From Azolla caroliniana (lineage: Eukaryota; Plantae; Polypodiophyta): a stretch of DNA of 64,000 bases. The notes beneath the pieces were generated by a model. The model was not told the DNA's origin. It did no database searches and worked only from the letters and a program-made list of their open reading frames with translations. Location of the stretch: contig JBHGNT010000049.1 of assembly GCA_043228905.1 (NCBI GenBank), positions 62,001 to 126,000 of the forward strand, in the 5' to 3' direction. The translations under genes were made by a program, and so were the position numbers. Positions 3,703-48,075 of the stretch are shown here, piece by piece (the stretch's first letter is position 1; each line of letters begins with the position of its first letter).

Positions 3703-3716
3703 TTATCCTCCCTTTT
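3703..3716 (-). other. Polypurine tract
   Basis: Plus strand TTATCCTCCCTTTT = minus AAAAGGGAGGATAA directly before the LTR TG; same GGATAA ending as the chromovirus PPT at 31352-31365. Confidence 0.85.
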
Positions 3717-3767
3717 ACGGTTGCCTTTTCGAAAGCACGATGTAGGGGTGAATGGGAAGTGGTGGGT

Positions 3768-5143: not shown

Positions 5144-5154
5144 AAGGGATTCAA
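5144..5154 (-). other. Self-complementary primer-binding site (non-tRNA)
   Basis: Minus TTGAATCCCTT begins 2 nt after the 5' LTR and is complementary to minus AAGGGATTCAA at 5347-5337 in the LTR. Confidence 0.8.
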
Positions 5155-5156
5155 AC

Positions 5157-5615
5157 TATCACAGACACACCAACCGCGGACTACGACGGAGCATGGATGA
5201 CGAGGCTACGATCGATGGGCTACGAACTTGGAGCTAGAAGTGACGAGGCTAGGAACTCTAGAAGGTGTGATCAACATGAGTGCATGAAAGATGGAATGAA
5301 ACGAGGAAAACTAGATTGATGTGTCAGTGACTGGCGTTGAATCCCTTGAAAGGGACCAAGGAGGTTACAAGTATTTATATTGTGAGTTGAAGTACATACA
5401 TTAGAATATTCTTGAGAATATTTTGGAGAATATTCTAGAACCCTCTAGAACCTTCTAGAACTTTCTATAAACTCCTAGAACGTGAATAGATAATCTATGA
5501 AGATATATATAATGTAATTTATGTACTTCAATATGTTGGTTACGATATAACACTTGACTATAATACAAGAGGTCAAGAGTTCAAATCTTGACATAATCGT
5601 GTCATGTCTGTGACA
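5157..5615 (-). repeat. 5' LTR of the non-autonomous element
   Basis: Repeat of 3220-3702; minus-strand TATAAATA at 5379-5372; inner terminus mutated (TA instead of TG on plus). Confidence 0.9.
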
Positions 5616-5643
5616 ATTACCTTTATATATAATTTACAATGTT

Positions 5644-5645
<2 letters not shown>

Positions 5646-5688
<43 letters not shown>
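5646..5688. repeat. (TC)n microsatellite
   Basis: Direct reading. Confidence 0.95.
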
Positions 5689-5691
<3 letters not shown>

Positions 5692-5759
5692 CCTACTTCG
5701 ACAAAGAGTACTTATTGTATCCCTGATTTAGAGCATTGAATTCAAGATGTCCAAATGAT

Positions 5760-7060
5760 ACTTAACAACTTATGGCAAAGTTATTTGCATACATAATGGA
5801 AGCTAAGTTAAAGTGCATGGACGAAAAAGAATGATAAGAGGTTGATAGCAAGTGGGTTTTTGGAAACACAACACTATCAATCACCTTGTCACTCTTTGAG
5901 TGTTGATGCAAGACTTCAAGAAAGCTTTTGAGATAGTGCCTTGTGAGCATCTTTAAGACAGATGGAAGAATTCAAGCTACCAAGTGAATGTATGCTTGCA
6001 ATTTTTCAAATCTATGGGAATGTGATATACCATGTGTATATAGGAGATGGAATTTCATATTGTTCATTAACATCATTGCTATTAAGTAAGGATGCTCACT
6101 CTCACCCACTTTCTTTGGTTTGAGCATAAATTGATGAATTTGATAAAATGGTGAAGTAAGAATGCATTAAAGAAGTTACCATAAAAAATGTAGTTATCCT
6201 GCTTATTAATATGTAGATGATATGACGTTTTTTGCAAATGCTTTAGAATATGTCCAAAAACTTTTGAGTATATTGTAAAACTTTTGTATGTTTCGCAAGT
6301 TGAATGTCAATAGATCCCAAAACAAAGGTTATGCCCAATGGTGACGAAATTTAATGCTAGATTTTCAAGAAATACATACTTGATACATTGGTAACACTAA
6401 TGCTTCTCTATGAGGATCAAGTACGGGGTTGTAACATCCCAAAGTCTATTAAGAAAGAGTTTGAAAATGTCCAAAACTTTATTTAAAAAGAGTTTCTTCA
6501 AGACAAACCACAAACGCCATACATGCACCTATTTCTTGAAACCATATCCCTTCCCATTGAGATCATGCTTATGGAAAATCTAGTGCACACTAGAGGTTTA
6601 AAAAAAATTCTCACATCAACTACCTAATATTGAATGAGAAGCAAGTAAAAAGTAAAAAAAAAAACCAAGTACAAAGATTTAACAAAAATATAATAAAGCA
6701 AGTAAAAATATTCAAAAGACATGCAAAAGCAAAAATGTCGACTTTGTATGCATGTTATGGAAGATCTGAAGAAATGGTTTGAAAAATGGAATGTATAACA
6801 TTTACTTCATGATACATCAATAGACTTGTCCATAGATGAGGCATTTTTTCGATGCCTATGTATCACAACTTGGAAAAGATATGAGGTTGTTTCACAAATT
6901 ATATTATGTATGTTGCATCAAACTACAAAACCACATTCTTCTTAGAACATGGAAACCACATCATCAATGTAAACTCTTATTCATATCTTTTATCAATCAA
7001 ATTTTCAAACATCAAGAGTCACAACTCAATTCAGACAAACTATGTAAAATTGACCTTTAA
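5760..7060 (+). pseudogene. Degenerate LINE (RTE-like) reverse transcriptase
   Basis: Broken RT motifs: INHLVTL*VLM (about 5880), IK*GCSLSPTFFGL (QGCPLSP motif, about 6080), a YADD-like box (about 6210) and KEFENVQ..QTPYMHLFLETISLPIEIM (about 6450-6570). Confidence 0.65.
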
Positions 7061-7076
7061 TAATGATAATAATCAA

Positions 7077-7148
7077 GTCGTTGCAGTATAATGGTAAATA
7101 TTCCCACTTGTCACATGCGTGACTTGGATTTGATCCCCGACAACAATG
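7077..7148 (+). pseudogene. tRNA-Asp(GTC) pseudogene
   Basis: 72 nt colinear with the plant cytosolic tRNA-Asp sequence as I recall it (GTCGTTGTAGTATAGTGG...GGCAACGGCG); GTC anticodon kept; CAA upstream and TTTTT downstream; about 16 substitutions break the stems and the B box. Confidence 0.85.
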
Positions 7149-7256
7149 TCTTTTTCCTATGGGTCAATATTGGTCTCTCTATGGACGCTAAATCTTTCTC
7201 TCTCTCCCCTAGCAAGCTACATATAATGAGATATTTCCATGAACAATCTCTAACTC

Positions 7257-7870
7257 TCACATAAGAAAATGACAATATCCTTTATTCAATGCCTAAATTA
7301 ACCTTCATGCTTCATAATTGTTGATTCCTATTTAACAATCGGCAATGGTTCAGTTTGACAGTGTCAAACCCGAACCGTTTAAAATTTTTGAAACTTGAAC
7401 AAAATCAAATCACGAAATTGCAAAAAAAAATTCAAATATTTAAACCATTAAACCGTTAAAACTGCGATTTTGTGGCTCAGTTTCAGTTTTCAACTTAGGT
7501 CAAATTTTAAAATATTTCATTATTTAAAATTTTAAAGATTTTCCTAAAATGTGAGATAAGGCTTGAAAATGAAAAGATTGTTTAATTTTTTTTTAATATT
7601 AAAAAATAAAAAACCGTTAAATCGTTTAAAGTGCAGTTTCTAACTGTTAAAACCGAACTGTTTAAACCATGGTTTCGCCGTTTGGTTCAAACCGAACCGT
7701 TGCCGACTTTTATTCCTATTGTCACACCCTCAACATTATAGGTTTAATCCTAAACAATCACATAAGACTACAACAATATCCTTTATTCAATGCCTAAATT
7801 AACCTTCATGCTTCATAATTGTTGATTCCTATTGTTACACCCTTAACAATATAGGTGTAATCCTAAATGA
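7257..7870. repeat. About 113-bp tandem duplication; the first copy is interrupted by a MITE
   Basis: ACAATATCCTTTATTCAATGCCTAAATTAACCTTCATGCTTCATAATTGTTGATTCCTATT at 7272 and 7773. Confidence 0.85.
7333..7712. mobile_element. hAT-type MITE
   Basis: Imperfect TIRs TAACAATCGGCAATGGTTCAGTTTGA / TCAAACCGAACCGTTGCCGACTTTTA; 8-bp TSD TTCCTATT (7325-7332, 7713-7720); subterminal AAACCG motifs; empty site in the adjacent duplicate. Confidence 0.85.
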
Positions 7871-10800
7871 TTGCAATGGGGGTTCCATGTGATTGTAATG
7901 TCAAAGTTAGCATACAAATGGGTGTCCATGAAGTATTGATTACGCATTTTACCTTGCAAATGTCCATCATGTATTGCTGCAATCAACAAGTTCATGCAAT
8001 AAGGTAGTGTACATCAACAATCAAGACTCTAAGGGTCTTATAATGGTACGGTGTACCCCATCATCTCGTTTCTCATATAGCGAACTAAACTCTACATTTC
8101 ATCTTTCTATTAATCTTTTGCCAACCTCATATCAATCTCTCGTTTTAATCCTTCTTAATATACAACATTTCTCATATGGTATCTCTCCTACTCTTGCCAT
8201 ATATTAAAATTTATTATATTATTGGTTAAAATTTCTCTATTGTTGATATGTTGGGAACTGTTTGGCTTCTATCATGGAGAAGCTACATTAAATATCTTCT
8301 TCGCAAGCCCATATTGATCAAGAGTGTTGAGCTGTCTACAACTACCCCATATTGATTGGATAAGGAACACGAGTAGGGTCATCCTACTCCATGCTAAGCA
8401 TGAAGAAATACAATATGCATATGCTTGTGCACTTCTTAATAAAAAAGTTTGGGGTTGTTGGTAAGTATAAAAATAAGGTTGCTAAGGATAGGTCGACGAA
8501 GAGAAATCCTCTTAAGTTCAAAGGCATACTTGGCCAACAAAAGAATCAATATTTACCAATCTGAATATATTTGGTACTTGAGTTTAAGAGTTAGATAGTT
8601 GTAGAGACAACTAGAGTCAAATGATGAATTAGTTGTGAGCTTCAATATATGTGGGTTCAAGTAATGTTGATCATTATGGTTAAAAGAACATAACTAGTTT
8701 TAAGTGTACGATGTAGTTCACCTAGTAGTTGCACTTCATTACCCAAATGTTTGATAAGTGTTTAACATTGCATACAAATTATTTATTCACGAATTCTTGG
8801 TTGAATGTGCAAGTGCTCTCTAGATCGTGATTCGTAATATATGACAAAGAATTGGGGGTATTTATTGGGTTTCATTATGTTGCTTTAGTGGATGAATATA
8901 ATCACAAAGGGGAAAAGCAAGAGAAGTTTACTCACTTTGTAGGGTTGAATAGATCTAATGATTGTTTGCGTAGTCTATAAAATATTTGAAACAATCCGAC
9001 ACTTTCAATTCCATGTACGATAAACCTTCTATACTCCTTGTTGATTCCCATGTATGTAATTTCAAAGTATATCATACCAAAAAAAGCATGCAAGGGTGAA
9101 ATCAAAGTAAAATTATTTGTTTAAGAATCTATGGATAGGTACTTTAAGAACGCTAAATATGATGAGATATAAGAGAATAATCTATCAAGCCATGCAATAT
9201 GATATGAATGGCATACATGTATACTCAATTTGTGGTCGACAAAGCATTCATTATGGCTAGCCCATTTCTACTTTCACTTCCACCCTTTCGAAACAACGTT
9301 GGGAATAAGTAGTCATTTCAACTATACAAGACAAAACAGAATTAAAATTGCAAGACAAGAGACAAGCGTGCATTTCATTATAAGATACTGTTGCAATCGA
9401 GGTGGACAATTGAGAATTTGTGAAATCAAAAGAAATGGTGAATTTTATTGTTGTTTCGATTATACGAGAATAAACCAGGGTCAAAGGAACAAAGAATGAG
9501 TGGATGGAATTCTTCTTTAAAGTGTATTCTATTGAATGGGTAGTTTGGTCAATAAAAAATGGAAGAGAACGAAAAAAAGTATCGATTTGTTCTTTTTGTA
9601 TTGTTGGGTCTAAGTAATTTCATATACAATGTTATGTGTGTTCCCCCTCATATTTTGGTTGTCTATCTCCTGTAGATGTTAATGATCACTCTCTCTCTCT
9701 CTCACTTAAGAAATGTACAAAGTAGTGTTGTTAAAAATCTCTCTTTCATGTAAGAATCTTAAGGTCAAACTAGTTTGATGGAATTGTGCTAAAGATTGTA
9801 ATGTCAATTATCAATATGGAATAGTTTATTACGCCAACTTATCATCCTATTGTTAGACGATGGACATTAATGTGATAAATGAATAAGTCGTGTCCCTACT
9901 ACAATACTAAATAGCAAGGATCTTATGACAAAGAAAAACTCTAAGGTTTTGTAAGATTGAGTGACATAAAGGGAACTCCACTCATGACAAGATGCTCACA
10001 ATGCTTAGTTGCAAAAATTGTCAAAACAAAATTCTTTTTTACCTACATGCTTTTTTTGCTACTCCATGGAGACCATCAAAACAAGAACCCATTTATCATA
10101 CTCCAATTATATGACAATCGCCATTACTTAAGGTAGTCAAACATAACCTATAAAATGGGGAGGGTAAAGTGCTAAGAAAAACCCACAAAAAGGGAAGGGT
10201 AATAAAAATTTCCCAATTACTAATGCCCAAAGTTATGACACAACCACACGAATGGCTTTAACAATTAGTCATGTAAGGAATCTATGTTTTCCATTCTCCT
10301 CGATCATTGTATGACACGAAATGTGTCCTATTTAAAATGTGTCAATGTTTTAAACCCATCCCATTGTGCTCCAAATAAACACTTTTGCACTGAATGGAGG
10401 ATGAGAACAAGAAGTAATCATGCATAAGAACCTAACGCCACCATCATATACAACAAGTAATGTGCCTTTTACTCAAAATGTTCCCCACTTTGCTAATCTC
10501 TCTTTACCTTCCATTATCTTATGATGGATGCCATTGGTGGGTTTTTTTCCCTTTTTGCCCTTTTAAACAATTAATATTTCCATGGACCATTTGTTACCTA
10601 TTTTGGAACAAAGGCCCCAAGAATTGGTAATGTAAATAATATTTGTCAAATATGACCATATCAAGGAGGTATATGAAACTTGCTTCATATAGACTTGCAG
10701 GTTGTGGATCTACCTATATGATTCTAAAATAACAATTTGCATGGTTATCGAGCCATTTTGTGTCACACAATTGAATTTAGACTTGAAAATTTCCTTTCCA

Positions 10801-13599
10801 TTGTAAATTAGGAGTCATATGGACACAAGTACCTCCGCCAATAGATATATTACTATATTGTCATCATTTTGACTGTTGCCACTTGACCAACTCAAACTAT
10901 AATTCAAAGTATTAAATTACCAAGCACGGTTGACAAACATGCCACCATGAAGTAGCAATCCTTGTTTTCTGATGTTATATACCAACCTTGAATTCTTTAA
11001 CATGCCAATTCTTTGAGCAACCATATGATCTTCCAATTTTAGTAGGACTACTCTCCTTCAATGCAACGGGGGTACACACATGATTCCATGCAACCCAACT
11101 CATGGCTAAACTTGACTTTTTCTTCCAAAATCTTATTCTCTTTGCTTGACAAGTTAAATGTTTTAGTGATTTCTTCACTCATGGCAGTAATGTAAGAAAA
11201 TAAAAAAGGAGAGGAATCAATATTACATCATACATGTATCGCATTGAGTTGAATAGCAACCAGTTAGGCTTGAGACAAATTAGGTTATCTCTCATGCATG
11301 TTATCTCATTAAAAAGGCCCATTTAAATACCTTTGAGGAAGAAATAGTGTGATATCAATATCCTTGTGGCTGTAATATTTGTGATAATTGTTTCTGTAAG
11401 TATGAACCGTGTCTTTTTTAGAAAACTTTTTCTACATTTGATGTCTAATCTCATCACAATATCTCTTGGGAAACCTACTTAAGTACTTTCAAGAACTTTG
11501 CAAGGCTCTTTTTTTTCATCCATATCCATTCAAAAACAGTGTAACATGAGTCACATCTAACCATCACAAGTATATGCTACCACGAATTCAAGTTTAATTG
11601 CATCACAATGCCCTTTGGGTTAGGTACACCAGTAGTCTAAACCCTTCACTTTTTAGTTATGACAATTTGTTGTTGTGGTACATTGAGTCATCATAATTTG
11701 ATACAATTAACTCAACCCACCTTTCCTTTTAGATTTGATGCATTGTGTTGATACCTAAAATGTTGCACGATTCAGGTTTGATATTGCAATTGGCTTCTTG
11801 GGACAATTCAAAACGTGTTCAAAGGAATTTTGTTAAGTTTTTGTTGGATATTAACACCTTATTGGACACCAACCCATGGCACATATTCAATTCTTGTACT
11901 ACCTTGCATCATGTTTTATCACCGTATAATCATTTGCCTCATAAAATTATTCAACTATTGATTTCATAACCCCCCTTTACCTCACCACAACTAAAACATA
12001 GTAACACAAAAGTTCAAATAAGTTGCCTTCTCTTTGACATGCAGACACAACTCCACATGTTATGCTAGACTTTGATGAACAACAATATAATTTCTCTCAT
12101 TCACGCTCACACTTTATCTCTCCAATAGGAAATTTCCATTCTATTGTTTTGTCTTCTTACAATAGCCTCCTAACTCTAGCTAAGCCCACGTGATCTTGAT
12201 TTTTTATCACATATATCACGGCCATATAATGATTATTGTCATATGTTTGTCCATTTTGTCTTTTGATAATAATGTTCCTTTACCGCTAAATCATGTTTTC
12301 ATTACGTGTTGTGTGTATCACAAACACACATGACTATATGTATAATTTATATACATGTGTACATACATTAGGGGATCCAAACAAAACATTTGCATGTAGT
12401 GTACGAAATATGGGAGTGTGCATCGACAACATACATGCATTCATTCCATGTATGAAAAGGACCATGTTCCCATTTATACAAGCATGCAACCCCACTACAA
12501 CATAATTACACATAATTGTGTGCATAATTATGAAATGCACATAGGAAAAAACTTAAGCATGCAACATACACATGCTTCCACTAAGTTGAGTGCGCTTACA
12601 TATACTTCTGCACATGCACTTATCAAATACCTTTGTTTGAAGAAATCAAAATGTATATAAACCCTAGATTTACTTTTGAGATGGTCATTAACAATGGAGT
12701 TATATTCCCTCCATTATTCATAAGAAAATTGTCTTAATAACAATCATAGATCCCTTTATAGGAAACACAGATACCTTAGTTCACTTCACACCAACATCGG
12801 TTTGTTACCTATGATTTGAGGAAAATGAACCTAAAACCATGCATTACTTCACATGTTCACTTAGTACACTAAGCCCACACATGATTATGGCTTTAAACAT
12901 TGAGTTACAAAGTCCTTGAGATTATGTTTCATAACTTTGGAAGAATATATACAATATTCAGAGGACATCGAGGTCCCATCTCCATAGGATAAGATGATTT
13001 TATAGATAATTCACAAAGATGGCACTAGAATGTTTTTTGTGGTATTCTTCGAAAGATATAAATGCTAACCTTGTGAATCTAGTTTATGAAACCATAGAAT
13101 TCATGAGAATCAATCTAATAGATGCATACATATCATTCTTTACTTCCTTAATTGAATATTGGTGTGATTCCAACAATATGGTCCATTATGAAATCACCCC
13201 TAGTAACTCATTTGATGATAGAAGTTTGCATATTCATTCACACACACCACATTCACTCAAATATGTTCATCTTATTAAGCTCCAACATTATTTATCCTTT
13301 TCTTTTTTGTAATTAAGTTATCTTAATAGTAAGGTATTAGCTATCAATTTAAGTTCTTGACTTTGAGGCTTGATTACCATACCTCTTATTAGACTATATA
13401 TTTTTCTTAGTTTACTAGATGCCATTGTGGAATGTAGGGGTTGAATGACTTTCTTGTCTTCACTTCACAACATGACTAATAAAGCTACGATTGTTTTGTC
13501 CCGTGCTTCTCGTGGAACTTGACGCTTGGAACCAAGAACCTTATTCTGCATTTGAGAACATACGCAATAGAGGAGAAATTTGAAGTTCACTTCTTAATA

Positions 13600-14435
13600 A
13601 GTACCTCTTTGACACTTTGATGAAACCCATCCTCTATGGGGTTGAACACCCTCCAATTTGAAAGAGTTTAAAAATGTCCAAAAAGACTTTCTGTTGATGG
13701 AAGTCAAGAGACAAATATTGTATATGCCTCTACTTCTCGAGGCTGAATCACTTTCCATGGAGATCATAGGCATGGAAAGGGTTATTGAGTACATGACTAA
13801 GAATAAAAAGGATCCTTTAAATGGACTTCATAAAATCTCATGGGAAGCAAGTAAAAAGATTAAAAATACTGAATAGATGCAAAATATGAAGAAATGGTTT
13901 GGAGGATGGGATACATGACACTTGCTTCATATACATCAATATATTCCATTGTGAAGGAGGTTTTTCAACTAATACAACCATATCACAACTTGTTAAAGAT
14001 GTGGAGGCTATTGTTTTACATATTATATTATACATGTTACACCAAACTATGAAATCATTGTTTTCTTCGACATTCTAGTGTCCATCCCTTTATACAACAT
14101 CCACATGATTGCCTGAATACATCTTACTTGACATTCTCTTTGATGTGGGACGACACAATGGTCTACAAGAGACAGACACATGTTGACTATGCATATTTTC
14201 CACTTAACAAGTTCGTGAGCATGAGCATGACACTTCGATGCAATGTTTTGCTTTTGACCACATTTGAGTTGCATTGTCAATCCAATGTAATCCCTACAAA
14301 GATTCATTTTGTAGTCTCAATTGTAATATTCATTAGCAAAATATTTGCATATTGATAATCACTCTCAATTCCACACATACTACGAAAAAAGTTTCATTTT
14401 TGGTCTCATGGGCCAAATTTGGTCTTAGAAGGTGT

Positions 14436-14479
<44 letters not shown>
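13600..14479 (+). mobile_element. 5'-truncated degenerate LINE (same RTE-like family), ending in a (CT)n tail
   Basis: KEFKNVQKDF..LLLEAESLSMEIIGMERV..ISWEASKKI is homologous to about 6450-6700; IA*IHLT*HSL*CGTTQW resembles the C-terminal HxLxCETGRW motif; (CT)n at 14439-14479. Confidence 0.6.
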
Positions 14480-14481
<2 letters not shown>

Positions 14482-15225
14482 TCAAGTCAAAAGACAAATG
14501 TCATACATGCTCTCAACTCTCGTGACTTGATCACTTCACATTGAGATCATGGGCATGGAAAGGATTGCTAGATATGCACCTAAGATTAGAAAAAATCTAA
14601 CATCAACTTCCTAAAATTTCAGAATATGAAGCAAGTAAAGCGTCAAAACAAACGCAAGCTTAATATTAAGTTATGGATGGATGCAAGACATGTAGAAAAG
14701 GTATGGAAGATGGAAACATCAATATATTCCTTGGTGAATGAGGATTTTAATGTATCACAACTTGGGAAATATATGGAGGCTCACATTTCATGTATTATAT
14801 TACAAATGTTGCACCAAACTATAACTCTCACCCATACATGTTATATATTTAACTATCATCCACACCATTGCTTCCATATGAGTTGAACTCACATTATTTT
14901 TGATGTGATGGTAGTGCATTGGGGCATAAGCTTTCATATTTTGTCTTGAACAAGTTAGTAGGTATATTGAATGAGCATTACATTCAAATATAACGCTCCA
15001 CCTTCAATTACATTCAACTTTTCATTTTATCCATTAAATATGGTAGTCTCCTTCCACAAATTTTTTCACAATAATAATGTGCACTTTCAATTGCAATCTT
15101 CATTAGTAAAATTCTTGGACATTGAGTGCCACTAGTCAAAACTCATATATTAACTTCATAATGTTCAACTTTTAGTTCCACTAGTCATATTTGACCTCCA
15201 AATATCATCATAAAATCTCTCCCTG
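14480..15225 (+). mobile_element. Second 5'-truncated copy of the same LINE
   Basis: GAGATCATGGGCATGGAAAGG and TATCACAACTTG blocks shared with the 6.5-kb and 13.8-kb copies; 3' motif TTGACCTCC...ATAAAATCTCTC. Confidence 0.55.
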
Positions 15226-15559
15226 ACTCAATTTAATGCAATGTATATATTAATGACATGGCATTGTTCCTACAACAACTATGGGGATATATAATAAGAA
15301 AATGTCTCTAATTTATTGTAATACTAGTTGGCATAAGGGCATCATTGGTAAGCATCGAAGCTTGAGTTGAGACTCTTGAAGCAAAATAGTAGTATTGAGA
15401 TAAGGTGTCACATGCAAATTTGAGATGAGCCAATATGTCCAAATTGATTTCTATTTTTCAATGGGCAAGTTACATGGCATACATTGTGCTAAATGCCATC
15501 ATTTGGGCTCTCTCTCATCATTAATGTCTAAATTCTATTCTTGATTACATTATTGTAGT

Positions 15560-16900: not shown

Positions 16901-17129
16901 GGCCCGCAATAATAAGGTCTTTGATTGCAACCAACTACACGAAGTTAGCTTCTTTAAGAAATCCCTCAGGCAATCTCTATTTGATTGTTTGCAACTTACA
17001 GACATCACACTACAAATTTACACTCTCTACTTTGAGTGCTTCTAAGCTCTCTAGTGTCTAATCAACACTTGTATATTTCTCTTTATTCTTTGTGGGTTTT
17101 CACCTCACTTTGAGGTTTCCCACTAGTAA

Positions 17130-17423
17130 TAAAAGTGTTACTAAAAAAAGTCGACTATGCAACTTGTTTAAAAAAAGTTCGGGTGTATTAGTATCACACT
17201 TCGATACAATGTTCTGCCTTTGATCACATTTGATTATGCTTTCCACACATCTTCGACCAAACCCAATCCTTGCACAAATTTCTCTTAATAGTGTCACTCT
17301 CTATTGAAACGTTCATTGGTAAAGTTCTTGAACATCTAGAGTCGCTACTCACTTTTAAATATATGATGTGAAATGTAATATTTTTGGTCTCATAGGTTAT
17401 ACTTGACCTCCGAAGACGATAAT

Positions 17424-17460
<37 letters not shown>
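17130..17460 (+). mobile_element. 3' end of the same LINE family with (CT)n tail
   Basis: Homologous to 14170-14440; ends TTGACCTCCGAAGACGATAATAAAAT(CT)n. Confidence 0.55.
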
Positions 17461-17465
<5 letters not shown>

Positions 17466-21870: not shown

Positions 21871-22494
21871 ATGTGCGTAAAAGATCAAGGAATTTCATCT
21901 GAATACGTCATGTATCGACACAGAAATCATCGAATTGCTCACATATCCCCAGATCTTTCCCCCAAAATGAACCATAGCTCTACAGCCTATTCGTCCTCCA
22001 ACTCCTCTAGCTTTCGTTCATCGTTTTCTTCCTCCTCTTCTTCCCCATCCGTCTGCACAAACAAATCTTCAAAGTTTACAGTTCATCTGAAGAAAAATAC
22101 ACAGATAAACCTCTGTACCTCAGAGAAACCTTCAGTTCCACAAAAGAAGAAAATTATACAAAATACGATTCATTCCTCAGAGAAACCTTCACGTCCTCAG
22201 AAGAAAATGAGACAGAGAAAGCTCCCATCTTCACCATTATTCCTGTATCTTCAATCTTCAACACACCTCCAACGCTTTATCAAGAAGCTCAGAGATCTGG
22301 CTGCCATGGCAAGAAGAAGAAGCTCACTTTGTTCTCAGAAGCTGGTTCAGACTGAACGCCATGGTCATACTCCTTCGAGCTTTGGTCTGGGATTGTCTGC
22401 ATACTGTACTACGAACACATGCACGCCTGAGGCTATAGCGGAGTGTATTGAGTTCATCAAGAAGTCCGCTTCTTCTTCGTCTTCTTCCTCTTAG
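21871..22494 (+). CDS. Uncharacterised Ser/Lys-rich plant protein with C-terminal EAIAECIEFIKKS motif (a family often annotated josephin-like, without a Josephin catalytic domain)
   Basis: Open frame 21835-22494; first ATG 21871, alternatives 21910 and 21967. The C-terminal EAIxxCIEFI..SS motif and the upstream FIKKLR helix match my recollection of this family. Confidence 0.65.
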   Translation: MCVKDQGISSEYVMYRHRNHRIAHISPDLSPKMNHSSTAYSSSNSSSFRSSFSSSSSSPSVCTNKSSKFTVHLKKNTQINLCTSEKPSVPQKKKIIQNTIHSSEKPSRPQKKMRQRKLPSSPLFLYLQSSTHLQRFIKKLRDLAAMARRRSSLCSQKLVQTERHGHTPSSFGLGLSAYCTTNTCTPEAIAECIEFIKKSASSSSSSS

Positions 22495-23285
22495 AGTTTA
22501 TCGAGTTCATCAAGAAGTCTTCTTCTTGTTCTTCTCCTTCTTCCCTTTGCTGAAACAAAACGAAGAACAAAACCTTTGCTGTAGCCAGAGAAGATCGAGT
22601 TCATCGAGAAGAAGCCTGCTTTTCTTCTACCCGAAACGAAGAGAGAGTCTCCATAGCTAGACTGCATAGAATTCATGGAAAAGAAGTCTGACTTTTCTTT
22701 CTCTGAAACAAGGAAACCGCCACATCCCGTTCATCAAGAAGAAGTTCCGAGAAAGCAAGACTGGCCGTAGTCGAACCATATCAAGTTCGAGATCAAGAGG
22801 AAGTCTGCTTCTTCTCCTTTCTGAAACGAAAAAGGCCTTGCAATAGCCAATAATATCGAGTTTATCATCCGGAAGAAGACTACTTTTTTCTTCTTCTCTG
22901 AAACGAAGAGATCTTCTGCATAGCCTATTCTAAAGAGTTCATGAGCTGCAAGAAGCAATCGTCACCTTCTGAAACGAAGAAAGCTTCGCTATGGCCAACA
23001 ATGTTGAGTTGATCGTCAACAAGAAGTCAGTTTCTTTTCTAAAACGAAAACGAAGAAAGAAAGTTATGCAATGGCCAAAGGCTTCCAAGCTTGCTACGAC
23101 AAAAAGAAGGGACTGTTCTTCTTCCTGGAAGTCAGAAAGCTTCTGCCATAGACGAATGCAATGTCGACTTCATCATCAATAAGAAGTCGTATTCTTCTGA
23201 TCTAATACCAAACTAAGGAAAGACTCTTCCACGTACCAGAAACTATATCTCAAGCTCATCAACGGAAAGAAGCAATCAGCACCTT
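22495..23285 (+). repeat. About 11 diverged 70-80-bp tandem copies of the gene's terminal motif
   Basis: Recurring GCxATAGCC...ATCGAGTTCATC..AAGAAGTC..TTCTTCT.CTGAAACGAAG. Confidence 0.8.
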
Positions 23286-23289
23286 CATC

Positions 23290-23364
23290 TTGTCCTCAAG
23301 ATTAATCATCATCATCACCTTCTTCTTCATCTTTGTCTTCTTTATCATTGTCTTCATCGCTTTC

Positions 23365-23396
<32 letters not shown>

Positions 23397-23735
23397 GTTC
23401 TTGATAACATCTGCTTCATCATCATCTTCTTCACCATCTGCTTCTTCTTTAACATTTTCGCCATCGTTTTCTCATTATCACCTACTTCATCTTCATCATT
23501 ATCGGCACCATCTGCTTCCTTCTTTATCTTCATCATTATCGTCACCATCTGCTTCCTTCTTCTTTACCATCATCGCCACCATCTGCTTCCTTCTTCTTCA
23601 CCATCGCCGTTACCATCTACTTCTTCTTCATCATCGTGACCATCTACTTCGTCTTTATCATCATCGGTACCATCTATTTCTTCTTCTTCTTCTTCTTCAT
23701 CATCATCCTCGCGTTCGCTTTCTGCTCCTGTTCTG
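23290..23735. repeat. Low-complexity (TCA/TCT)n region
   Basis: Direct reading. Confidence 0.9.
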
Positions 23736-23848
23736 AAAGAGAAACGAAGTAAGCAGCAGATCTTCCTCTCTGCCATAGCCAAAATGTCTGCGTGTGACAA
23801 ATCGTAAAACAATTTGAAGTGCTCTTCGTCTTCCGTTTGTCCGCCGGT

Positions 23849-23991
23849 TTCACACCTGTCCGGACATCTCCGCCTCGTCGCCTTCACACTTGTCCGGACA
23901 TCTCCACCTCGTCGCTTTCACACCTGTCCGGACATCTGCGCCTCGTCGCGTTCACACCTGTCCGGACATCTCCATGTTCACACTTGTCCGG
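23849..23991. repeat. 34-bp GC-rich minisatellite (about 4.5 units) with palindrome TGTCCGGACA
   Basis: TTCACACCTGTCCGGACATCTCCGCCTCGTCGCC repeated. Confidence 0.9.
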
Positions 23992-25065
23992 GAAGCGTCG
24001 TGCCCATGCGTCTCCGACCCCCCCCCCCCCCCCCCCCCCCAAGCTTCACTCCGCATGCACGCTTGCAATGACCTTAAAGGTTTTTCATCTCCTCACTCTT
24101 TCGGCGTTGAAACCTTGTCATCTTCACACGTGTCTTGCCTTCGAGCTTCATTCTAAATCATCATTGTCTGCACTCTGAGCTTTCCATTACTATGTAGGTC
24201 AAATGCCTTGGATCAACACGCCCTTTGTAGTATGTGTTATTATCTTGGTTGTGGAGATGTGATTCAGTTGAGTGAAAAGCAATCTTAACTAAGTCAAAGT
24301 AGTGAGAAGGGAATGTTATACAAATTGGCCTGCCTTCTCCCCTTCTTCCCCATTGTAATGTTGTTGATTCATCATGTATTCTCAATGGTAATATACATGT
24401 TTGTCTAGTGCATCCACCATATCACACACACACATATTCTTTCTTTTTTTCCATAAAAAATATCCTCCATTGGTATTAAAATTAAAGTGGCCAAAGCCAA
24501 TATACAAATAGTCTATAATATTTTCCATCTCAACGAGTATAGATAATCTGAGAAAGGACCAAAGGTAAGTGTTATCATCAATCTAAATGTTCATCATCAA
24601 AAGAGATATTGTTCTAGATTTAATCTCAATGTTCATCACTGCTGCCAAGAACAAATACTACTTAAGATGTGTAGGAGAACAATCATCTCTCATTCAACTT
24701 CAATCTTGCCCTTATTATCCAACGAAATTAATCATGTAAGATGTTAAATGCATGAATTCTACCATGTCAACTAATCTAATCTTAAATCACCATCAAGAAG
24801 GAAGAATGCTAGAGCAAGATCACGACGGCGTTTTCCATTAGAACATGTGCATTTTAATGCAACAACCTGTTTTTTCTACTTCGGAAAATCTCGGGTTAGA
24901 AATACATACAAAACTTTATCCTTCTCATCTTTTCTCAACTTAAAGAGACTCATTAAAACATTCTTGTGTTGTAAAGCAAGGTATAGCAGTGCACACACAC
25001 ACATATTCTAAACGTCCTTTGTTGCACCTTAGAACTACCATCCATCTACTTCTCCAAATCTCCAT

Positions 25066-26210
25066 ATGGCACTAGAGGGTGAGGGTGTGATCATCATAGT
25101 TCATCTGCTTCTTCCGTGTTGTGCTTGAAAAGGTTTGGCTTACATGCATTCATGCGGTTGAAAATCGCTACCAAAATATGGCTACATAACTTGTAAAGAA
25201 AGGGAGAAATTGACAATAAGAGATCAAAGCTGAGAAGATGAATAAATAAATGTGTCCTCCTTTCAAGCGAGAAGCTTTACCACAATAATTTCACATGGTG
25301 GAAATACAAGATGCATCAATACCTTGTCAAACACGGATATTGGCAATACATCGAAGACAATATTGAAAACATGCCTAGTATAATTGACATTGACTAGATG
25401 GGATGGCAACAAGGAATGAGCCATGTAATGTATTGTAGCGCAATTTACATACAAGATAACATGCTTGGTTAATCAATGGATTCAAAGATTCCAAAGTATG
25501 GGAAACCTTAAGAAGATCTTTGTTTAAAAGGGCATGCTAATCAATGACTACACCCTAAAGTTCTTGTGTGATGTCCTTGTATCAATTGATGTGTACATTG
25601 GTAAGGAAGAGATGGTAGAAATATGTCTTGGTAGCCCTTCATAATGACTCGACATATTGAGGACCCTTGCCCTCATGAGAGAAAAGTTGGTAGAAGAAAA
25701 CCATGTCAACTTAAAGAGCTCAACCTTTGAAGGCTAAATGTTTAACAAACACATTAGCGGCCACAATTCCTGAAGAGAAAGAAGAATGAGTGATCGGCGA
25801 CACAATGAAGGAGGATGAGATACTTCCAACCACAATATGGGAGTGGACACTCAAGACGAAATCTAAAAAAATGGAGAGTTTCGATGGTGAAGCAAACCAA
25901 AATGTTGGAATTGTGGTGGCCAACCCAACCACATTTAGGATTGTTAGAAGAGGAAAAGTGATGCCACCAACTATTGAAAACTTACTAATTATGTTTATAA
26001 TGAAGCAAAAGGCTAAGCTCATGTTAGCAAGCACAAGAAAGATAAATGATATGTGGTTTGTGGACTCGCACATATCCGATTACTACATGATGAGTCACGA
26101 TGAATGGTTCTAGGATATACCAACAACCAAGTGATTTGACTATGTGGAGATGGTTGATTATACCACACATGTTATCTAAAACATTAGTGATGGCTTGTTC
26201 TGCAACAATG
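25066..26210 (+). pseudogene. Degenerate Ty1/copia gag-protease relic
   Basis: WFVDSHISDYYMMSHDEWF matches copia-A WYVDSGASNHMTSHKEWF; possible decayed Met PBS TGGCACTAGAG near 25067. Confidence 0.6.
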
Positions 26211-26462
26211 ACAAAATTCAGAAGCGGAGTGAAACTTGAACCGAAATGAAAATGAAGTGCAAACGAGCAAATGATTCAATCCTCACCAGGAAAGTGAGCG
26301 GTTGTAACCCCCACCAAAATTGCGAAGGTGAGCGATTGAAATCAATCCTGGCCAAAATCGTGATGCAAAATGTTACCTATAGATGAATGAATAGGGTGGA
26401 ACAATGATGATAATGAAAGACCATGCAAAGTAGTGTTGATGACGATGAAGGTTGGGTGAAGT

Positions 26463-26789
26463 TGTCAAGATTCAAACTCTTGACACAACCATGTTATAAT
26501 CTAGTATTATGAGTTAACCAAGATATCTAGCACATAGTTATGTATATAATTGGTCCTTATTATTTTGCTAGCATCATGTGCTTGGCACATGCATGCATAC
26601 CTACATGCTCTATTGTAGATTCACATGCGTGCAACAAGTATGCATGCCATGTAGTATAAATAGAGGAGTTCACCTTGAAGGAATTCAAGGTGAACAACAC
26701 AAGTTATGGAGTCTTTCCTTTAATACTATCTTCTTTCTTGTCCATTTGGTTATCTTCTTGCTTGTCTCTTGAGCTTATGATCCGTGACA
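26463..26789 (+). repeat. 5' LTR of the chromovirus
   Basis: TGTCA...TGACA; TATAAATA at 26655-26662. Confidence 0.95.
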
Positions 26790-26791
26790 GT

Positions 26792-26802
26792 TTGTTCACC
26801 TT
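26792..26802 (+). other. Self-complementary primer-binding site
   Basis: TTGTTCACCTT is complementary to AAGGTGAACAA at 26687-26697; no TGG tRNA PBS present. Confidence 0.8.
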
Positions 26803-26839
26803 CCCATCCTCATAGCTCTCCCTCTCATAAGCCATAGCT

Positions 26840-27856
26840 ATGTTCGACTCAACTAGTGAGTTAGGCCAAATAATGGTAGCCTTACGACAACTACAACTTG
26901 AAAATGAAGCTCTTCGAAATTCTTTACAAGAACTTCAAGTCGGTACCTCCCTATCCTCACAACCCCCGAACCCTAGTCTCCCACAACAACCTAGCCTCGA
27001 GCCCGATCTTCTACCAACATCTAGCCTAGCTTCGTCACAGTTTCTTGAGCCTAAGGTTAGCCTCCCAGAAAAATTTGATGGAACGAGGTCGCGTTTCTGA
27101 GGGTTCATCAACCAAGTTCGACTTATCATTCGGCTACAACCTCAACGTTATGGAGATGGTCTTCGACAAGTCGGCCTTGTGGGCACCCTTCTCTTCGGTC
27201 CAGCCCAAGCTTGGTTTGAACCATTGGTAGAAACCTCGTCACCTCTATTGGAGGACTTTCCTGCCTTCCTCGCTGAGTTAGAGGCCACATTTGGAGAGAC
27301 GGATTGACGACGTACAACTCTTAACAAGATTTATGCACTCGAACAAGGTTCGCGTGCAGCTTCGGTTTATGCTTCAGAATTTCGACAACTAGCATGCGAC
27401 GTCAATTGGGATGATCAAGCTTTAGCTGATCACTTTCGGCGCGGCCTTCAAAGCAATGTCAAGAATCTTCTCTTAAACTTTCCGGAGCCCACCTCGTTAT
27501 CCCAAGCGATTTCACAAGCAGGCCATTGTGACAATCGTCTTTTCGAATTTCGCCAAGAAGAGCGCCGGACTTGGGTTCCACCTCATTCATTTCCACGCCA
27601 TGCCCCGATCATACAACCCCAAGCATCCTCACACTCGCCTACTTTGGCAGATGCTCATGTCCCCATGGAAATTGATGAAGCCCGATTTCGGCCATTGATT
27701 GATGTTGAACGACAATTTCGGTGGGCTAATGGCTTGTGCATGTATTGTGGCGCCTCCGGTCATGTCGTTCGCCATTGTCCTAGGAGTACTCACCCACAAT
27801 TCCATCGAGCTAACAGACCCCAACATCCGGAAAACGACATTGTTCGGTTGCAGTAG
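26840..27856 (+). pseudogene. gag: Chromovirus gag (two in-frame TGA stops)
   Basis: LPEKFDGTRSRF, PMEID, zinc knuckle CMYCGASGHVVRHC; single frame with stops near 27098 and 27305. Confidence 0.9.
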
Positions 27857-27880
27857 GAGCCATGCAACTGGACATCTCCT
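27829..27880 (+). promoter_or_regulatory. Putative -1 ribosomal frameshift signal (G GAA AAC plus stem-loop/pseudoknot)
   Basis: Heptamer in gag frame; stem 27841-27852 / 27863-27874; pol lies in the -1 frame. Confidence 0.7.
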
Positions 27881-30800
27881 GTCGCCCACATTCTCTTGGT
27901 TCCATTGCCAGACCATCAGGCAATTTCACATTAGAGGTATGGCTTTCGTTTAACTCTAGTTCCATTTAGTCTGTTGCTTTACTTGATTCTGGGGCATCTT
28001 CTTGCTTCATCGACATCGCATTTGCCCAAGCACATGGCGTACCTGTCGTTGGCCTCTCAAAACCCATTCCAGTTGAAGCCATCGACGGGTGCGTCCTCTC
28101 GTCAGGTGCAATTACTCAAGCTACAATCCCATTAGGGCTTCGGGTGGGCTCACACCAAGAGGAGCTCGCCTTTTACCTCATCGCATCTCCTCGACATCCG
28201 ATCATCTTAGGACTAACGTGGTTGGAGGCGCACAATCCAATAGTGGATTGGTGCAACCGCTCGATCACATTTAGCAAACCAAGATGCTCGTGCAAAAGTA
28301 TGAAGGTAAATTCAGTTTCCTATCCTTCGGAGACGGTCGACTCCGAATTGACTACCCCATCATCGGTCCAGGATGGGTTTGTTTGTGGCGCCATTTCTAA
28401 CACACTCTATGTTATTCCCGAAAAATACCAACACTTCTCCGACGTATTTGAAAAATGTAATGCTGATCGTTTGCTTGAACACCGGCTCTATGACTGTCCG
28501 ATTGATCTTCAAGAAGGTGCGTGTCCACCCTTTGGTCCTCTATATGCGTTGTCTGCACCAAAGTTGAAGGCCCTTCGTGTGTATCTCGATGAGAACCTTG
28601 AGAAAGGATTTATTCAACCTTCTAAGTCACCAGCCGGGGCCCCCAGTTTATTTGTGAAGAAGAAGGACGGCTCTCTACGCTTATGCATCGACTACCGAGG
28701 TCTCAACAAACTCACAGTGCGCAACCGCTATCCGCTACCTCTGATCCCCGAACTCCTTGATCGGCTCCGAGTTGCGCGTGTCTTCTCCAAAGTTGATCTG
28801 CGTGGAGCGTACAATCTAGTATGCATCAAGCCGGGGGATGAATGGAAAACCGCATTTCGAACACGGTATGGGCATTTCGAATACAAGGTAATGCCTTTTG
28901 GTCTTACTAACGCTCCCGCAGTTTTTCAACATATGATGAACGATATATTCCGGGAATATCTTGATCTTTTTGTTGTCATTTACCTCGATGATATTCTCAT
29001 TTTCTCGCCAAACATGGAGGAGCACACTCGCCAAGTCCGATTAGTTCTTGCCAAACTTCGCGAGCATGGCCTTTATGCCAAAGGCAAGAAATGCGAGTTC
29101 GACCGTACCTCGATCAAATTTCTGGGCTACATCATCTCGCCCACTGGCATCACCATGGATATGAAGAAGGTCTCTGTCATTCAAGCGTGGGCAACTCCAA
29201 GGCGACTTAAAGATGTGCAATCCTTCCTCGGCTTCGCGAATTTTTACCGTCGCTTCATCAAGGGGTTTTCCACCCTAACACAACCTCTTATCTCTCTCAC
29301 CCATAAAGGCACTCCATTTTTATGGACCTCGGAGGCGCAAAATGCATTCGACTCACTCAAACACGCATTCATCATTGCCCCGGTGCTGCTACATGCCGAC
29401 CCCACAAAACCCTTCCAAGTCGAAACCAATGCCTTTGACTTTGCCACTAGCGCCATCTTATCCCAGGCAGACGACAACAACCTAATGCACCCAGTGGCTT
29501 ACTATTCCCGAAAATTTACGGCATCCGAAATCAATTATCCCATTTACGACAAGGAGCTTGTTGCTATCATTGCTGCCTTTGAAGAATGGCGACCCTACTT
29601 GGCCGGCGCACAACATCGTGTCCAGGTAGTGATTGATCATAAAAATTTAGTTTATTTTTCCACCACTCGTACTTTGAATCGAAGGCAGGCCCGTTGGTCG
29701 ACATTTCTCGCCGACTACGATTTTGAGATCGTATTTCGACCTGGTGGCCAACATGGGAAGGCTGATGCCCTTTCTCGCCGAGCTAACCTTGCACTCCGCC
29801 CTGGGGATGCTGCTTATGCTCAACAATCTAGATGTTTGTTGAAATCCGACCAATTGCATCTTTTTGCCACTTGTATATTGCAGGATGATTCTTTACTCCA
29901 ACAAATCACTGATGCATCGAAGACCGATGCGTTCGCCAACGAGATTCAAGATAGTCTGCAAAACCCCTCCAAGGCGACCAAAAGGAAGGATCTTGACACC
30001 TTCACCATACAAGAGGGTTTGTTGTTCCGAGATAATCTCTTATACGTCCCAGAGGGCCCATGTCGCACCTGGGTGTTGCGGGTGTGCCATGATGACCCAC
30101 TTGCAGGTCATTTTGGGGTCGCGAAAACCCTCAAGCTAATCTCTCGGGGGTATTGGTGGCCACAACCATGGAAGTTGGTCAAAGAATACATAAAGAGTTG
30201 TGAGGTTTGTGCTCGCTCCAAAGCCATTCATCATCGGCCATATGGCTTACTACAACCGCTTCCATGTCCTCGTCGTCCTTGGGCCTCTATCTCTATGGAC
30301 CTGATAACTGATCTACCCTTGGTCAATAGCTATGACTCGGTGTTGGTCGTTGTCGATCGGTTTACGAAGATGGCTCACTTCACTCCATGCTCCAAAACCA
30401 TTTCCAGAGAAGGAATGATGCATCTACTACTCAACAATGTGGTACGCTTGCATGGACTCCCTGATGATGTCATCTCGGATCGCGGACCCCAGTTTGTCTC
30501 TCACTTCTGGCAGCGCCTGCTACAAACTTTAGGCATCTCTGTCAAGTTGTCCTCCACTTATCACCCCCAAACTGACGTGCAAACGGAGTGTGTCAACCAA
30601 ATCCTTGAGCAATATCTTCGGTGCTCGGTTAGTTACCAACAAGATGATTGGGTGAACTTACTTTCGCTCGCGGAATTCGCCTACAATAATTCTCTCCATG
30701 CATCGACTGGCGTCACTCCCTTCTTTGCCAACTATGGTTTACATCCTTGATTCAACATTTCCCTTCCTACCACTTCCGTGAACCCTTCGGCGGAGGATCA

Positions 30801-31402
30801 CGCTCGCATTTTGGAAGAACTACATCATGATTTATCCTTAGAGCTTAGTCTTGCTAGTGAACGATACAAGAAGCAGGCTGATCGCCATCGATCTTCCACT
30901 CCACACTTTGTCGTTGGAGACATTGTTACGTCGACACATCTTTACTACTCGTCCATGTGCAAAACTTGATTACAAGAAGTTGGGACCATTCCGTATCATC
31001 GAGTGCATCAATCCCGTCGCCTTCCAGCTCGCCCTTCCATCCCACTTCCGGATTCATGATGTTTTTCATGTCTCCCTCCTCGAACCCCATTATGCTTCAC
31101 AACTCCCAGGACGTCAGGCCCCACCACCACCACCTGTGCAATTGACGACAGGGGAGGAATACGAGGTCAACCAAATCCTTGACTCGCGTTGGCACCGTCG
31201 ACACTTGCAATACCTCGTCCTATGGAGGGGTTACCCCATGTCTGAGGCCATGTGGGAACCATCGGCAAATTTACAAAATGCCCCAGAGGTCATCCAAGAT
31301 TTTCATCACCGATATCCCCACAAACCAACGGCCGATTTGGGAAGGCGGCGTAGGAGGGGGGATAATGTCAAGATTCGAACTCTTGACACGACCATGTTAT
31401 AA
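27835..31402 (+). pseudogene. pol: Chromovirus pol: protease, RT, RNase H, integrase, chromodomain
   Basis: LLDSGASSCFI, YLDDILIFS, integrase HDDPLAGHFG..CEVC and SDRGPQF, GPF motif, chromodomain EYEVNQILD..YLVLWRGY..WEP; stops at about 27967 and 30748, frameshift near 30925. Confidence 0.95.
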
Positions 31403-31719
31403 TCTAGTATTATGAGTTAACCAAGATATCTAGTACATAGTTATGTATGTAATTGGTCCTTATTATTTTGCTAACATCATGTGCATAGTTGCTCCCTTGT
31501 AGTATTTACACTTGGCACATGCATTCATACCTACATGCTCTATTGTAGATTCACATGCGTGCAACAAGTATGCATGCCATGTAGTATAAATAGAGGAGTT
31601 CACCTTGAAGGAATTCAAGGTGAACAACACCAGTTATGGAATCTTTCCTTTAATACTATCTTCTTTCTTGTCCATTTGGTTATCTTCTTGCTTGTCTCTT
31701 GAGCTTATGATCCATGACA
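31366..31719 (+). repeat. 3' LTR of the chromovirus
   Basis: Repeat of 26463-26789, following the PPT. Confidence 0.95.
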
Positions 31720-32499
31720 GAAGTAGCATTTGATGAAGACAACAAGAGATGCTGAAAATGATGATGTCGAAGACAAGGCAATGAAGACGATGATGATGAG
31801 GAAGCGTCTCTAAAACAAGGATCTTGATTATGGTAACTCTGGAAGGAAGGATTGTGACGATGGTAACTCTAGAAGCAAGGGCGATGAAGATGACGAGTGA
31901 TGCTTCCAGTTGGAGGGGATTCAAACTGTCACAGATACACCAACCGTGGACTTGAACGGAGCAAGGATGATGGGGCTAAGAGCGTGGAACTTAAGAAGCT
32001 GGGAATGACACAAGAGCATGAAAATAGAGAATTTGAAGAAGGAGACAAGATGGAATGAAATGAGAATACTAGATTGATGTATCAATGACTGGTGTTGAAT
32101 CCCCTGAAAGGGACCATGGAGGTTACAAGTATTTATACAAGTTTCGAGATTGAATATCTTTAGAATATACCCATCTAGAATATACCGTACAATATTTCAA
32201 GAATATACTAATGACTAGAATATTCTGATTCTGAAATGTATTATATGCTAGACTATACAATACTAAAGTATTATATACAAATACATACTCATATCAAAAT
32301 GGTCAAGCATGACATTTTGTTAATGTGAGCTTGCAGGTTCAATCCTCACCTACTATGTATTTGATGTCACTGTGTCGTGACAATATTTGACCTCCGAAGA
32401 GGATAATAGAATCGCGACAATATTTGACGTTCGAAGAAGATAATAGAATCTATCTCTTGTCTCATAGACACACATTCTAAACATATTGTTGGCTATGGG

Positions 32500-47905: not shown

Positions 47906-48075
47906 TGTCGAATACATGTGTATAATGGACGTATTCACACTATCCCGTTTTGTCCATTTATGTAATTAGCATAAAGGGCAGTTGCCCTAAGTCGGTCCCT
48001 ATATATAGTGACCTTGTAACCTCTTTGTGGGGTTGGCTTGTTGTATTCTTGTTTATGAAATAAAGACTCTTTTGT

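Follow-up and report, generated by a model that had tools for sequence, protein, structure and literature searches.

Predicted self-priming of a Tf1/Sushi-group chromovirus and a gene-less LTR family in DNA from Azolla caroliniana

How does reverse transcription begin in long terminal repeat (LTR) retrotransposons whose 5' LTRs are not followed by a tRNA-type primer-binding site (PBS)? The question is raised by a stretch of 64,000 nucleotides from Azolla caroliniana (contig JBHGNT010000049.1, positions 62,001 to 126,000, forward strand; hereafter, the window), which holds a Ty3/gypsy chromovirus, a non-coding LTR element (element A) and a second copy of the same non-coding family (copy B) into which the chromovirus is inserted. 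In each of the three, the PBS is complementary to the predicted 5' end of the element's own RNA instead of a tRNA 3' end, as in the Tf1/Sushi group. On sequence and comparative grounds, we put at roughly 0.75 the probability that both families self-prime like Tf1 and that the gene-less family is packaged and copied by the proteins of this chromovirus family. To our knowledge, self-priming has been demonstrated only in Tf1 of fission yeast, and is predicted elsewhere.

Pairing of primer and primer-binding site in the window

The original prediction named six 11-nt segments, a primer and a PBS for each element. All six lie where it placed them, and each primer and its PBS are perfect reverse complements. 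The features concerned are as follows (U3, R and U5 are the unique 3', repeated and unique 5' parts of an LTR).

5157..5615, minus strand: 5' LTR of element A, U3 type alpha (Kimura two-parameter (K2P) distance to its 3' LTR, 0.055)
5372..5379, minus strand: TATA box of element A
5337..5347, minus strand: predicted self-primer of element A, nucleotides 1-11 of the predicted RNA
5321..5331, minus strand: 5' arm of the second helix of element A
5158..5168, minus strand: 3' arm of that helix, at the U5 end
5144..5154, minus strand: PBS of element A, preceded by a GT spacer (5156-5155)
31927..32382, minus strand: 5' LTR of copy B, U3 type beta, R and U5 in common with element A
32130..32137, minus strand: TATA box of copy B
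32095..32105, minus strand: predicted self-primer of copy B, with G at position 2
31914..31924, minus strand: PBS of copy B, preceded by a GT spacer
26463..26789, plus strand: 5' LTR of the chromovirus (K2P distance to its 3' LTR, 0.028)
26655..26662, plus strand: TATA box of the chromovirus
26687..26697, plus strand: predicted self-primer of the chromovirus
26703..26788, plus strand: second helix of the chromovirus in the predicted fold (26703-26710 with 26781-26788)
26792..26802, plus strand: PBS of the chromovirus, preceded by a GT spacer (26790-26791)

The RNA 5' end was predicted from the TATA box and the initiator. In all three LTRs the primer starts 32 nt past the first T of TATAAATA, with C at -1 and A at +1. 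As had been claimed, none of the 5' LTRs is followed by TGG; the LTR end (...TGACA in copy B and the chromovirus, TGATA in element A) is followed in all three by GT and then by the 11-nt site.

The longest complement of the 15 nt after each LTR was sought inside that LTR and compared with 5000 dinucleotide shuffles per LTR. An 11-nt self-complement was reached by 1, 0 and 1 of the 5000 shuffles for the three LTRs, with shuffle means of 5.0-5.8 nt. The three other LTR pairs in the window, all with a TGGTATCAGAGC-type tRNA site, served as an internal control and had a self-complementarity of just 4-5 nt. Predicted probabilities of the primer/PBS pairs ranged from 0.52 to 1.0 and were mostly at least 0.9.

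The primers of the chromovirus and the non-coding family differ at 4 of 11 positions, and primer and PBS of element A differ from those of copy B by a single pair. Four primer sequences, including that of a distant relative described below (L040), all keep the TATA box at -32, the C/A initiator, the GT spacer and full pairing; in these four letter sets the predicted +1 is the exact start of the paired 11-mer, and the 5' end of the PBS the exact limit of the pairing. The compensatory covariation proposed for the three LTR types was found across families, but within the non-coding family it amounts to one base pair, that between A and B. Likewise, primer and PBS change together in every case in the window, but in nine further junctions on related contigs not all of them match.

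Could the R/U5/PBS pairing be structural (packaging, dimerisation or protection), with the minus strand primed by a tRNA fragment or another small RNA? Half-tRNA priming is known in plants (PMC6317226), and a weak tRNA-like stretch lies inside the U3 of element A. Half-tRNA priming was found in Ty1/copia lineages only (PMC6317226), however, and the tRNA-like stretch is antisense and outside the 5' end of the predicted transcript. The lack of TGG and the exact placement of the 11-mer at +1 and at the PBS in four letter sets also argue against this explanation, which we consider quite improbable.

Self-priming of both families is very probable given the pairing, the TATA spacing, the second helix and the clade placement of the chromovirus. 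By analogy with Tf1 (PMC7175516), transcription would start at the first base of the primer, the first 11 nt of the RNA would pair with the PBS, and a second helix would form between R and U5. The element-encoded RNase H (RH) would then cut after nucleotide 11, reverse transcriptase (RT) would extend the cut primer, and GT would be the 2-nt cDNA overhang trimmed by integrase. Plus-strand synthesis would copy the primer into the PBS, so that a changed primer would be rewritten into the PBS in one round, as in copy B. A single-stranded PBS, made by copying in the course of reverse transcription, terminates about half of Tf1 cDNAs (PMC11042837), and because Tf1 cDNA keeps this primer-templated PBS, a primer change is likely to be templated into it. 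The joint change between A and B supports self-priming, but likely as a templated change and not as two independent compensatory mutations.

The non-coding family within and beyond the window

The remaining features of the non-coding family in the window are listed below.

3220..5615, minus strand: element A, complete non-coding LTR element of 2.4 kb (2,396 bp), flanked by GTAAT/ATAAT, a 5-bp duplication with one mismatch
3220..3702, minus strand: 3' LTR of element A
3703..3716, minus strand: polypurine tract (PPT) of element A, ending in GATAA as in the chromovirus
3768..4624, minus strand: internal tandem array of element A, about 17 hairpin units with a period of 38-60 nt; the chromovirus has no such array
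5530..5598, plus strand: weak tRNA-like stretch with a B-box motif, antisense at the U3 start of the 5' LTR of element A and repeated in its 3' LTR (3617-3685)
31720..31913, minus strand: leader/internal part of copy B ahead of the chromovirus insertion, 82% identical to element A over 118 nt
26231..26462, minus strand: internal part of copy B past the insertion; similarity to element A stops near 26231

Element A has the parts of an LTR retrotransposon, namely two LTRs (TG...CA), a PBS, a PPT and a target-site duplication (TSD), with one mismatch in the TSD and TGATA at the 5' LTR end; a further locus (L024) also has two LTRs. In tblastn searches with 10 Gag/Pol queries, no coding match was obtained in element A, the pieces of copy B or the PBS-bearing loci, and the longest stop-free frame of element A (176 aa) had no Pfam match. 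The internal array of element A gave 18 motif matches and its units keep a bulged hairpin; the same motif, with 4-21 matches per locus, was also present in L002, L005, L009, L024, L025, L031 and L038. This array is a candidate packaging or dimerisation signal. A hammerhead (retrozyme) reading of it was rejected (no Rfam match and, by eye, no GAAA core).

Copy B had been described as a second copy; it is a truncated target of the chromovirus insertion with a 5' LTR only, and no 3' LTR was found before its similarity to element A ends. The chromovirus lies inside it between perfect 5-bp duplications of GAAGT (26458-26462 and 31720-31724), and this duplication, together with the similarity to element A, indicates that copy B continues across the insertion. 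Sharing R and U5 and differing in U3 type, A and B are by this comparison U3 variants of one family.

A pattern for the R region that contained no primer letters matched 40 times in 39 metagenome loci. A relaxed scan gave 45 R regions (42 in loci and three in the window), of which 33 have the primer of element A, six the G variant of copy B and six single variants; the chromovirus primer was in none of the 45. Nine further junctions have both primer and PBS: five pair at 11/11 by Watson-Crick pairs, two at 11/11 with G-U pairs, one has a mismatch and one carries the chromovirus site (7/11). These nine are not independent, as L002, L005 and L024 are near-identical and L007, L022 and L038 are related. 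Both arms of the second helix, between R and the U5 end, are present in 32 LTRs, and 31 of these keep 9 or more of the 11 pairs. In an alignment of 10 junctions, paired cells made up 97.6% for this helix, compared with 26-48% when the arms were slid, and just two pairs had changed on both sides, both in copy B. The predicted fold of the chromovirus has the same helices in other letters.

Contigs from four runs (organisms A-D) that fell on element A numbered 9323, 5817, 3151 and 2192, depth not being copy number. In all four runs the LTR ends join many unrelated flanks, as expected of a dispersed mobile family. Among the 40 rows listed, of 64, for run contigs on element A, none falls inside the primer or the PBS. 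Primer, PBS and second helix are conserved while the interiors of U3 and U5 diverge.

These data also bear on the possibility that a self-priming ancestor gave rise to the non-coding family, which merely retains an inherited signature and spreads mainly by DNA-level tandem duplication, a helper-type PBS then being a relic. Tandem internal-LTR arrays do occur in L025 and L005, the primer in the R region of L021 is one step closer to that of the chromovirus, and the U3 start is shared with the chromovirus. Element A, however, possesses both LTRs and a PPT and is flanked by a 5-bp duplication with a single mismatch, the LTR ends join many different flanks in every run, and the priming elements are kept despite diverging U3 and U5 interiors. 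Nor could self-priming work from a relic PBS that its primer does not match. We regard this account as scarcely credible.

The chromovirus and its link to the non-coding family

The anatomy of the chromovirus beyond its priming features is as follows.

26463..31719, plus strand: chromovirus (Ty3/gypsy, Tf1/Sushi group), within copy B
26668..26695, plus strand: U3 "anti-primer" hairpin of 12 bp (26668-26679 with 26684-26695), covering 9 of 11 primer bases
26831..27856, plus strand: gag frame, with stops at 27098 and 27305
27862..31399, plus strand: pol (protease, RT, RH, integrase, SH3 and chromodomain), interrupted by stops at 27967 and 30748 and, near 30925, by a frame change
31352..31365, plus strand: PPT
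31366..31719, plus strand: 3' LTR

The Pfam domains are ordered as in chromoviruses, i.e., RVP_2, RVT_1, RT_RNaseH, Integrase_H2C2, rve, SH3_Tf2-1 and Chromo. The original prediction called this element autonomous, which does not hold for the window copy, broken by four in-frame stops and the frame change; the family, unlike this copy, is likely autonomous, because an uninterrupted Pol (P0001) is 94% identical to that of the window chromovirus. In an RT-RH tree of 34 rows, which were chosen from search matches and did not include Tf1 or named Tcn1 references, the chromovirus grouped with fungal and vertebrate elements (ultrafast bootstrap 100) apart from angiosperm and algal ones, with the basal nodes of the Tf1/Sushi group unsupported. 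Several related Pol clusters, at 66-82% identity, represent other Tf1/Sushi-group families in related data. Membership in the Tcn1 clade is likely, and the 5-bp TSD (GAAGT on both sides) agrees with it. The translated chromodomain carries Y, W and Y residues at the presumed aromatic-cage positions. The top named RT-RH identity, 66% to a protein of Cunninghamella (Mucoromycota), exceeds that to any named plant protein seen; a transfer between fungus and plant is possible.

Of 31 related loci (28 from contigs of metagenome-assembled genomes (MAGs) and three viral), 22 had enough upstream DNA for a scan. An 11-nt pair was found in L040 only, a relative in a MAG contig with an RT-RH identity of 64% and unrelated primer letters. 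L043 and L068 had 9-nt pairs at the LTR end; the remaining scannable loci had chance-level complements or none. Viral contigs gave no match to the PBS-junction pattern or to P0001, and three distant loci with alignment A1; the ESM Atlas returned generic RT clusters only. L040-L067, in 28 contigs of prokaryotic genome assemblies, are Ty3/gypsy elements of eukaryotic type and are likely contamination.

The LTRs of the chromovirus and the non-coding family are alignable only at the U3 start (75% identity over 80 nt), around TATA/R and at the U5 end. The two families also have the same U5 end, GT spacer and GATAA ending of the PPT. At L025 (2411-3928), the exact PBS of the chromovirus is enclosed by the LTR end and the leader of the non-coding family. 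This site differs from the family site by four adjacent changes, and both flanking LTRs carry the family primer, which matches it at 7 of 11 positions. The element is part of a tandem internal-LTR array, and in run X13 (organism C) the loose end of one contig, at window position 5152, shows a junction of the same type. Either trans-priming or a template switch by RT would need both RNAs in one particle, where the primer or PBS of the helper would be written into a parasite copy, and the junction is likely a footprint of co-packaging or of priming in trans. This footprint and the shared U3 start, U5 end and PPT ending make it probable that the non-coding family is mobilised by this chromovirus family. 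The proposed helper/parasite relation is thereby supported more strongly than when it was first put forward, although the chromovirus copy in the window is not autonomous.

An alternative is that both families self-prime but that another Tf1/Sushi-group family mobilises the non-coding one, the PBS of L025 being a DNA conversion or an assembly chimera. The restricted LTR similarity, the primers that differ at 4 of 11 positions and the several related Pol clusters would suit another helper. Tf1 cDNA recombines with homologous chromosomal sequence by way of its single-stranded PBS ends (PMC11042837), in line with a DNA-level accident, and the L025 contig ends in a 411-nt repeat of itself, as a chimera might. 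On the other hand, no coding element with the primer of the non-coding family was found by tblastn after any PBS-bearing LTR, these contigs being short. The chromovirus-like tract in L025 measures at most 24 nt and has just 14 and 6 nt of identity on its flanks, lengths that would not suffice for an assembly-graph switch. The R-U5 of L025 has exact matches of up to 26 nt to other loci, and a second data set has the same type of junction. We consider this alternative unlikely.

Two further features of the LTRs were examined. The U3 hairpin of the chromovirus was matched in stability by none of 5000 shuffles, and in the predicted RNA of the 3' LTR the primer has 9 of its 11 bases paired, at a probability of about 1. 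The same hairpin over the primer is present in L040 (108-137), where it is built from different letters and again none of 5000 shuffles equals its stability, so that hairpin and primer covary between the two; it is weak in L068 and L002 (107 and 176 of 5000 shuffles). Because the RNA carries U3 at its 3' end only, we hypothesise that the hairpin masks the second copy of the primer there: in the chromovirus it would hide the primer copy of the 3' R, and only the true 5' end would prime.

Of 24 LTR starts, which cover three U3 types, 22 have the B-box motif GTTCRANNC in antisense within their first 60 nt. Elsewhere in U3 it does not occur, and its background in the window is 0.014 per 60 nt. The motif lies at 32337-32345 in the LTR of copy B and at 31372-31380 in the 3' LTR of the chromovirus, with one change in the 5' LTR, and an A-box-like sequence lies about 40 nt from the motif. 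Rfam tRNA scores were 21-25 bits in the alpha type only (23.5 and 25.4 in the LTRs of element A), below the gathering score of 29, and there was no Rfam tRNA match in the LTRs of copy B or the chromovirus. With ARAGORN finding none, a functional tRNA in U3 was rejected. The antisense B-box is possibly an RNA polymerase III (Pol III)/TFIIIC module that acts as a barrier or an antisense promoter. The LTR start of the chromovirus (26463-26485 and 31366-31388) holds an 8-bp inverted repeat around the motif, and the LTR of element A has 22 extra nt ahead of the start shared with the chromovirus LTR.

Several points weigh against self-priming of both families combined with mobilisation by this chromovirus family. 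Every step of the mechanism (start, cleavage and cDNA) is drawn from sequence and from Tf1. Among the nine further junctions, one is truly mismatched and two lean on G-U pairs; a single primer/PBS pair, in a single copy, has changed on both sides within the non-coding family, and none of five further LTRs of the G type comes with a PBS. The R-region pattern fixed the 5' arm of the second helix, which biases the count for that helix. The swapped PBS is known from one metagenome contig, with the self-repeat at its end, and one loose end, and conversion at the DNA level by a helper cDNA end could possibly yield it. The helper primer pairs weakly with the parasite PBS, at -3.9 versus -14.4 kcal/mol, which would make trans-priming a rare event. 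In element A (646 of 5000) and copy B (1671 of 5000) the U3 hairpin does not reach significance, and it is absent in L043. Given the broken window copy and the other Tf1/Sushi-group families, the actual helper may be a sister family.

More tentatively, the cut 11-nt self-primer of the helper may be diffusible in the particle, at times prime the non-coding RNA and be written into the PBS of the parasite. A lineage converted in this way, unable to self-prime, would live on the helper primer in trans; in the same lineage of elements the covarying U3 hairpin would silence the 3' primer copy and the antisense B-box module at the LTR edge would form a chromatin barrier. We hold this extended account to be doubtful.

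Related systems and neighbouring DNA

The closest parallels are Tf1/Tf2 of Schizosaccharomyces pombe, Tj1, Tosmo1-3 and Tcry1, which likewise have an 11-nt primer at the RNA 5' end that matches the PBS. The Tf1/Tf2 group also shares the additional R/U5 duplex and a chromodomain-bearing Ty3/gypsy Pol. Of the three RNA duplexes of the Tf1 "pretzel" (bioRxiv 10.1101/2022.12.06.519325), two are matched here by sequence and predicted folds; no third Tf1-type duplex with sequence downstream of the PBS was present in the predicted folds. Unlike Tf1, the present elements come from a plant host, include a separate non-coding family with its own primer and are known from sequence alone; their 12-bp U3 hairpin over the primer is unmentioned in the Tf1 text available to us.

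Self-priming has been predicted for 83% of 1,500 plant Tcn1 elements (Neumann 2019, PMC6317226), and Tcn1 was found in mosses and Selaginella, with none in a PCR survey of 26 ferns and horsetails (Novikova 2010, PMC2864245). The chromovirus resembles plant Tcn1 in its non-seed-plant host, an RT nested among fungal and vertebrate Tf1/Sushi elements, a 5-bp TSD, the aromatic residues of the chromodomain, predicted self-priming, and gag and pol in separate frames. Its self-priming is expected from its clade and is not new. In contrast to the Tcn1 reports, the host here is fern-like, and those surveys cover protein-coding elements and not non-coding partners. The TAR lineage (Houba, Osr-1) is alike in predicted self-priming, at 89% (PMC6317226), but is Ty1/copia, whereas the Pol here is Ty3/gypsy with a chromodomain.

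With TRIMs (miniature terminal-repeat retrotransposons), large retrotransposon derivatives (LARDs) and intermediates, as surveyed in sugar beet (PMC13570524), the non-coding family shares two LTRs, a PBS, a PPT, a TSD and the lack of coding sequence; modular U3 variants and tandem arrays are also common to it and to TRIMs and LARDs. The six PBS motif types of that survey all derive from tRNAs, and the term "self-priming" is absent from the accessible text, whereas the PBS here pairs with the element's own R. At 2,396 bp, element A is not a TRIM (<1 kb). Helenus/Cassandra elements (TRIMp3; Kojima 2024, PMC10886601) are alike in having a tRNA-like/Pol III box within a non-autonomous LTR, and Helenus is tRNA-primed and 0.3-1.3 kb long (PMC10886601). 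Unlike in Helenus, the match here is weak and in antisense; it lies where U3 begins, next to an intact TATA promoter, and occurs in the autonomous family too. An identity with Helenus was rejected (antisense motif, Rfam score below the cut-off, no match in the LTR of the beta type or of the chromovirus, length of 2.4 kb, presence of a TATA box). The predicted mechanism is known in kind from Tf1. The coding element belongs to the Tf1/Sushi group; the gene-less family, a non-autonomous one, is set apart from TRIMs and Helenus by its length and priming.

No report of a self-priming non-autonomous plant family, of trans-priming by a self-primer or of a U3 hairpin over the primer was found in a literature that was mostly open access, with key Levin/Butler papers outside it; none of the accessible parts of PMC13570524, PMC6934838, PMC3601003, PMC5341516, PMC7175516 and PMC4600332 describes these three features. 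A helper and a parasite with different primer letters would offer a natural way to ask whether it is RNA shape or sequence that is read in the cutting step, and whether a cut primer can act in trans. Should the L025 junction prove real, PBS swaps would be a sequence footprint by which non-coding elements are assigned to helpers, something usually impossible. PBS finders based on tRNA libraries miss this entire high-copy non-coding family. The chromovirus extends Tf1/Sushi-group elements to a fern-like host, where the PCR survey had no Tcn1.

The rest of the window holds other elements. A second non-coding-looking LTR element (61175-63505, minus strand) has 455-bp LTRs that are 92% identical and an ordinary TGG tRNA-type site. 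Nested copia elements occupy 43731-59343: a young copia (47906-53371), with LTRs 100% identical, lies inside a minus-strand element with LTRs at 43731-44134 and 58940-59343, and the nest includes a partial duplicate with inverted segments (47344-47905 versus 49748-50309). A pentatricopeptide repeat (PPR) gene fragment lies at 35857-37506 (plus strand), with a repeat periodicity of about 306 nt and its best named matches in Adiantum and Ceratopteris at about 40%.

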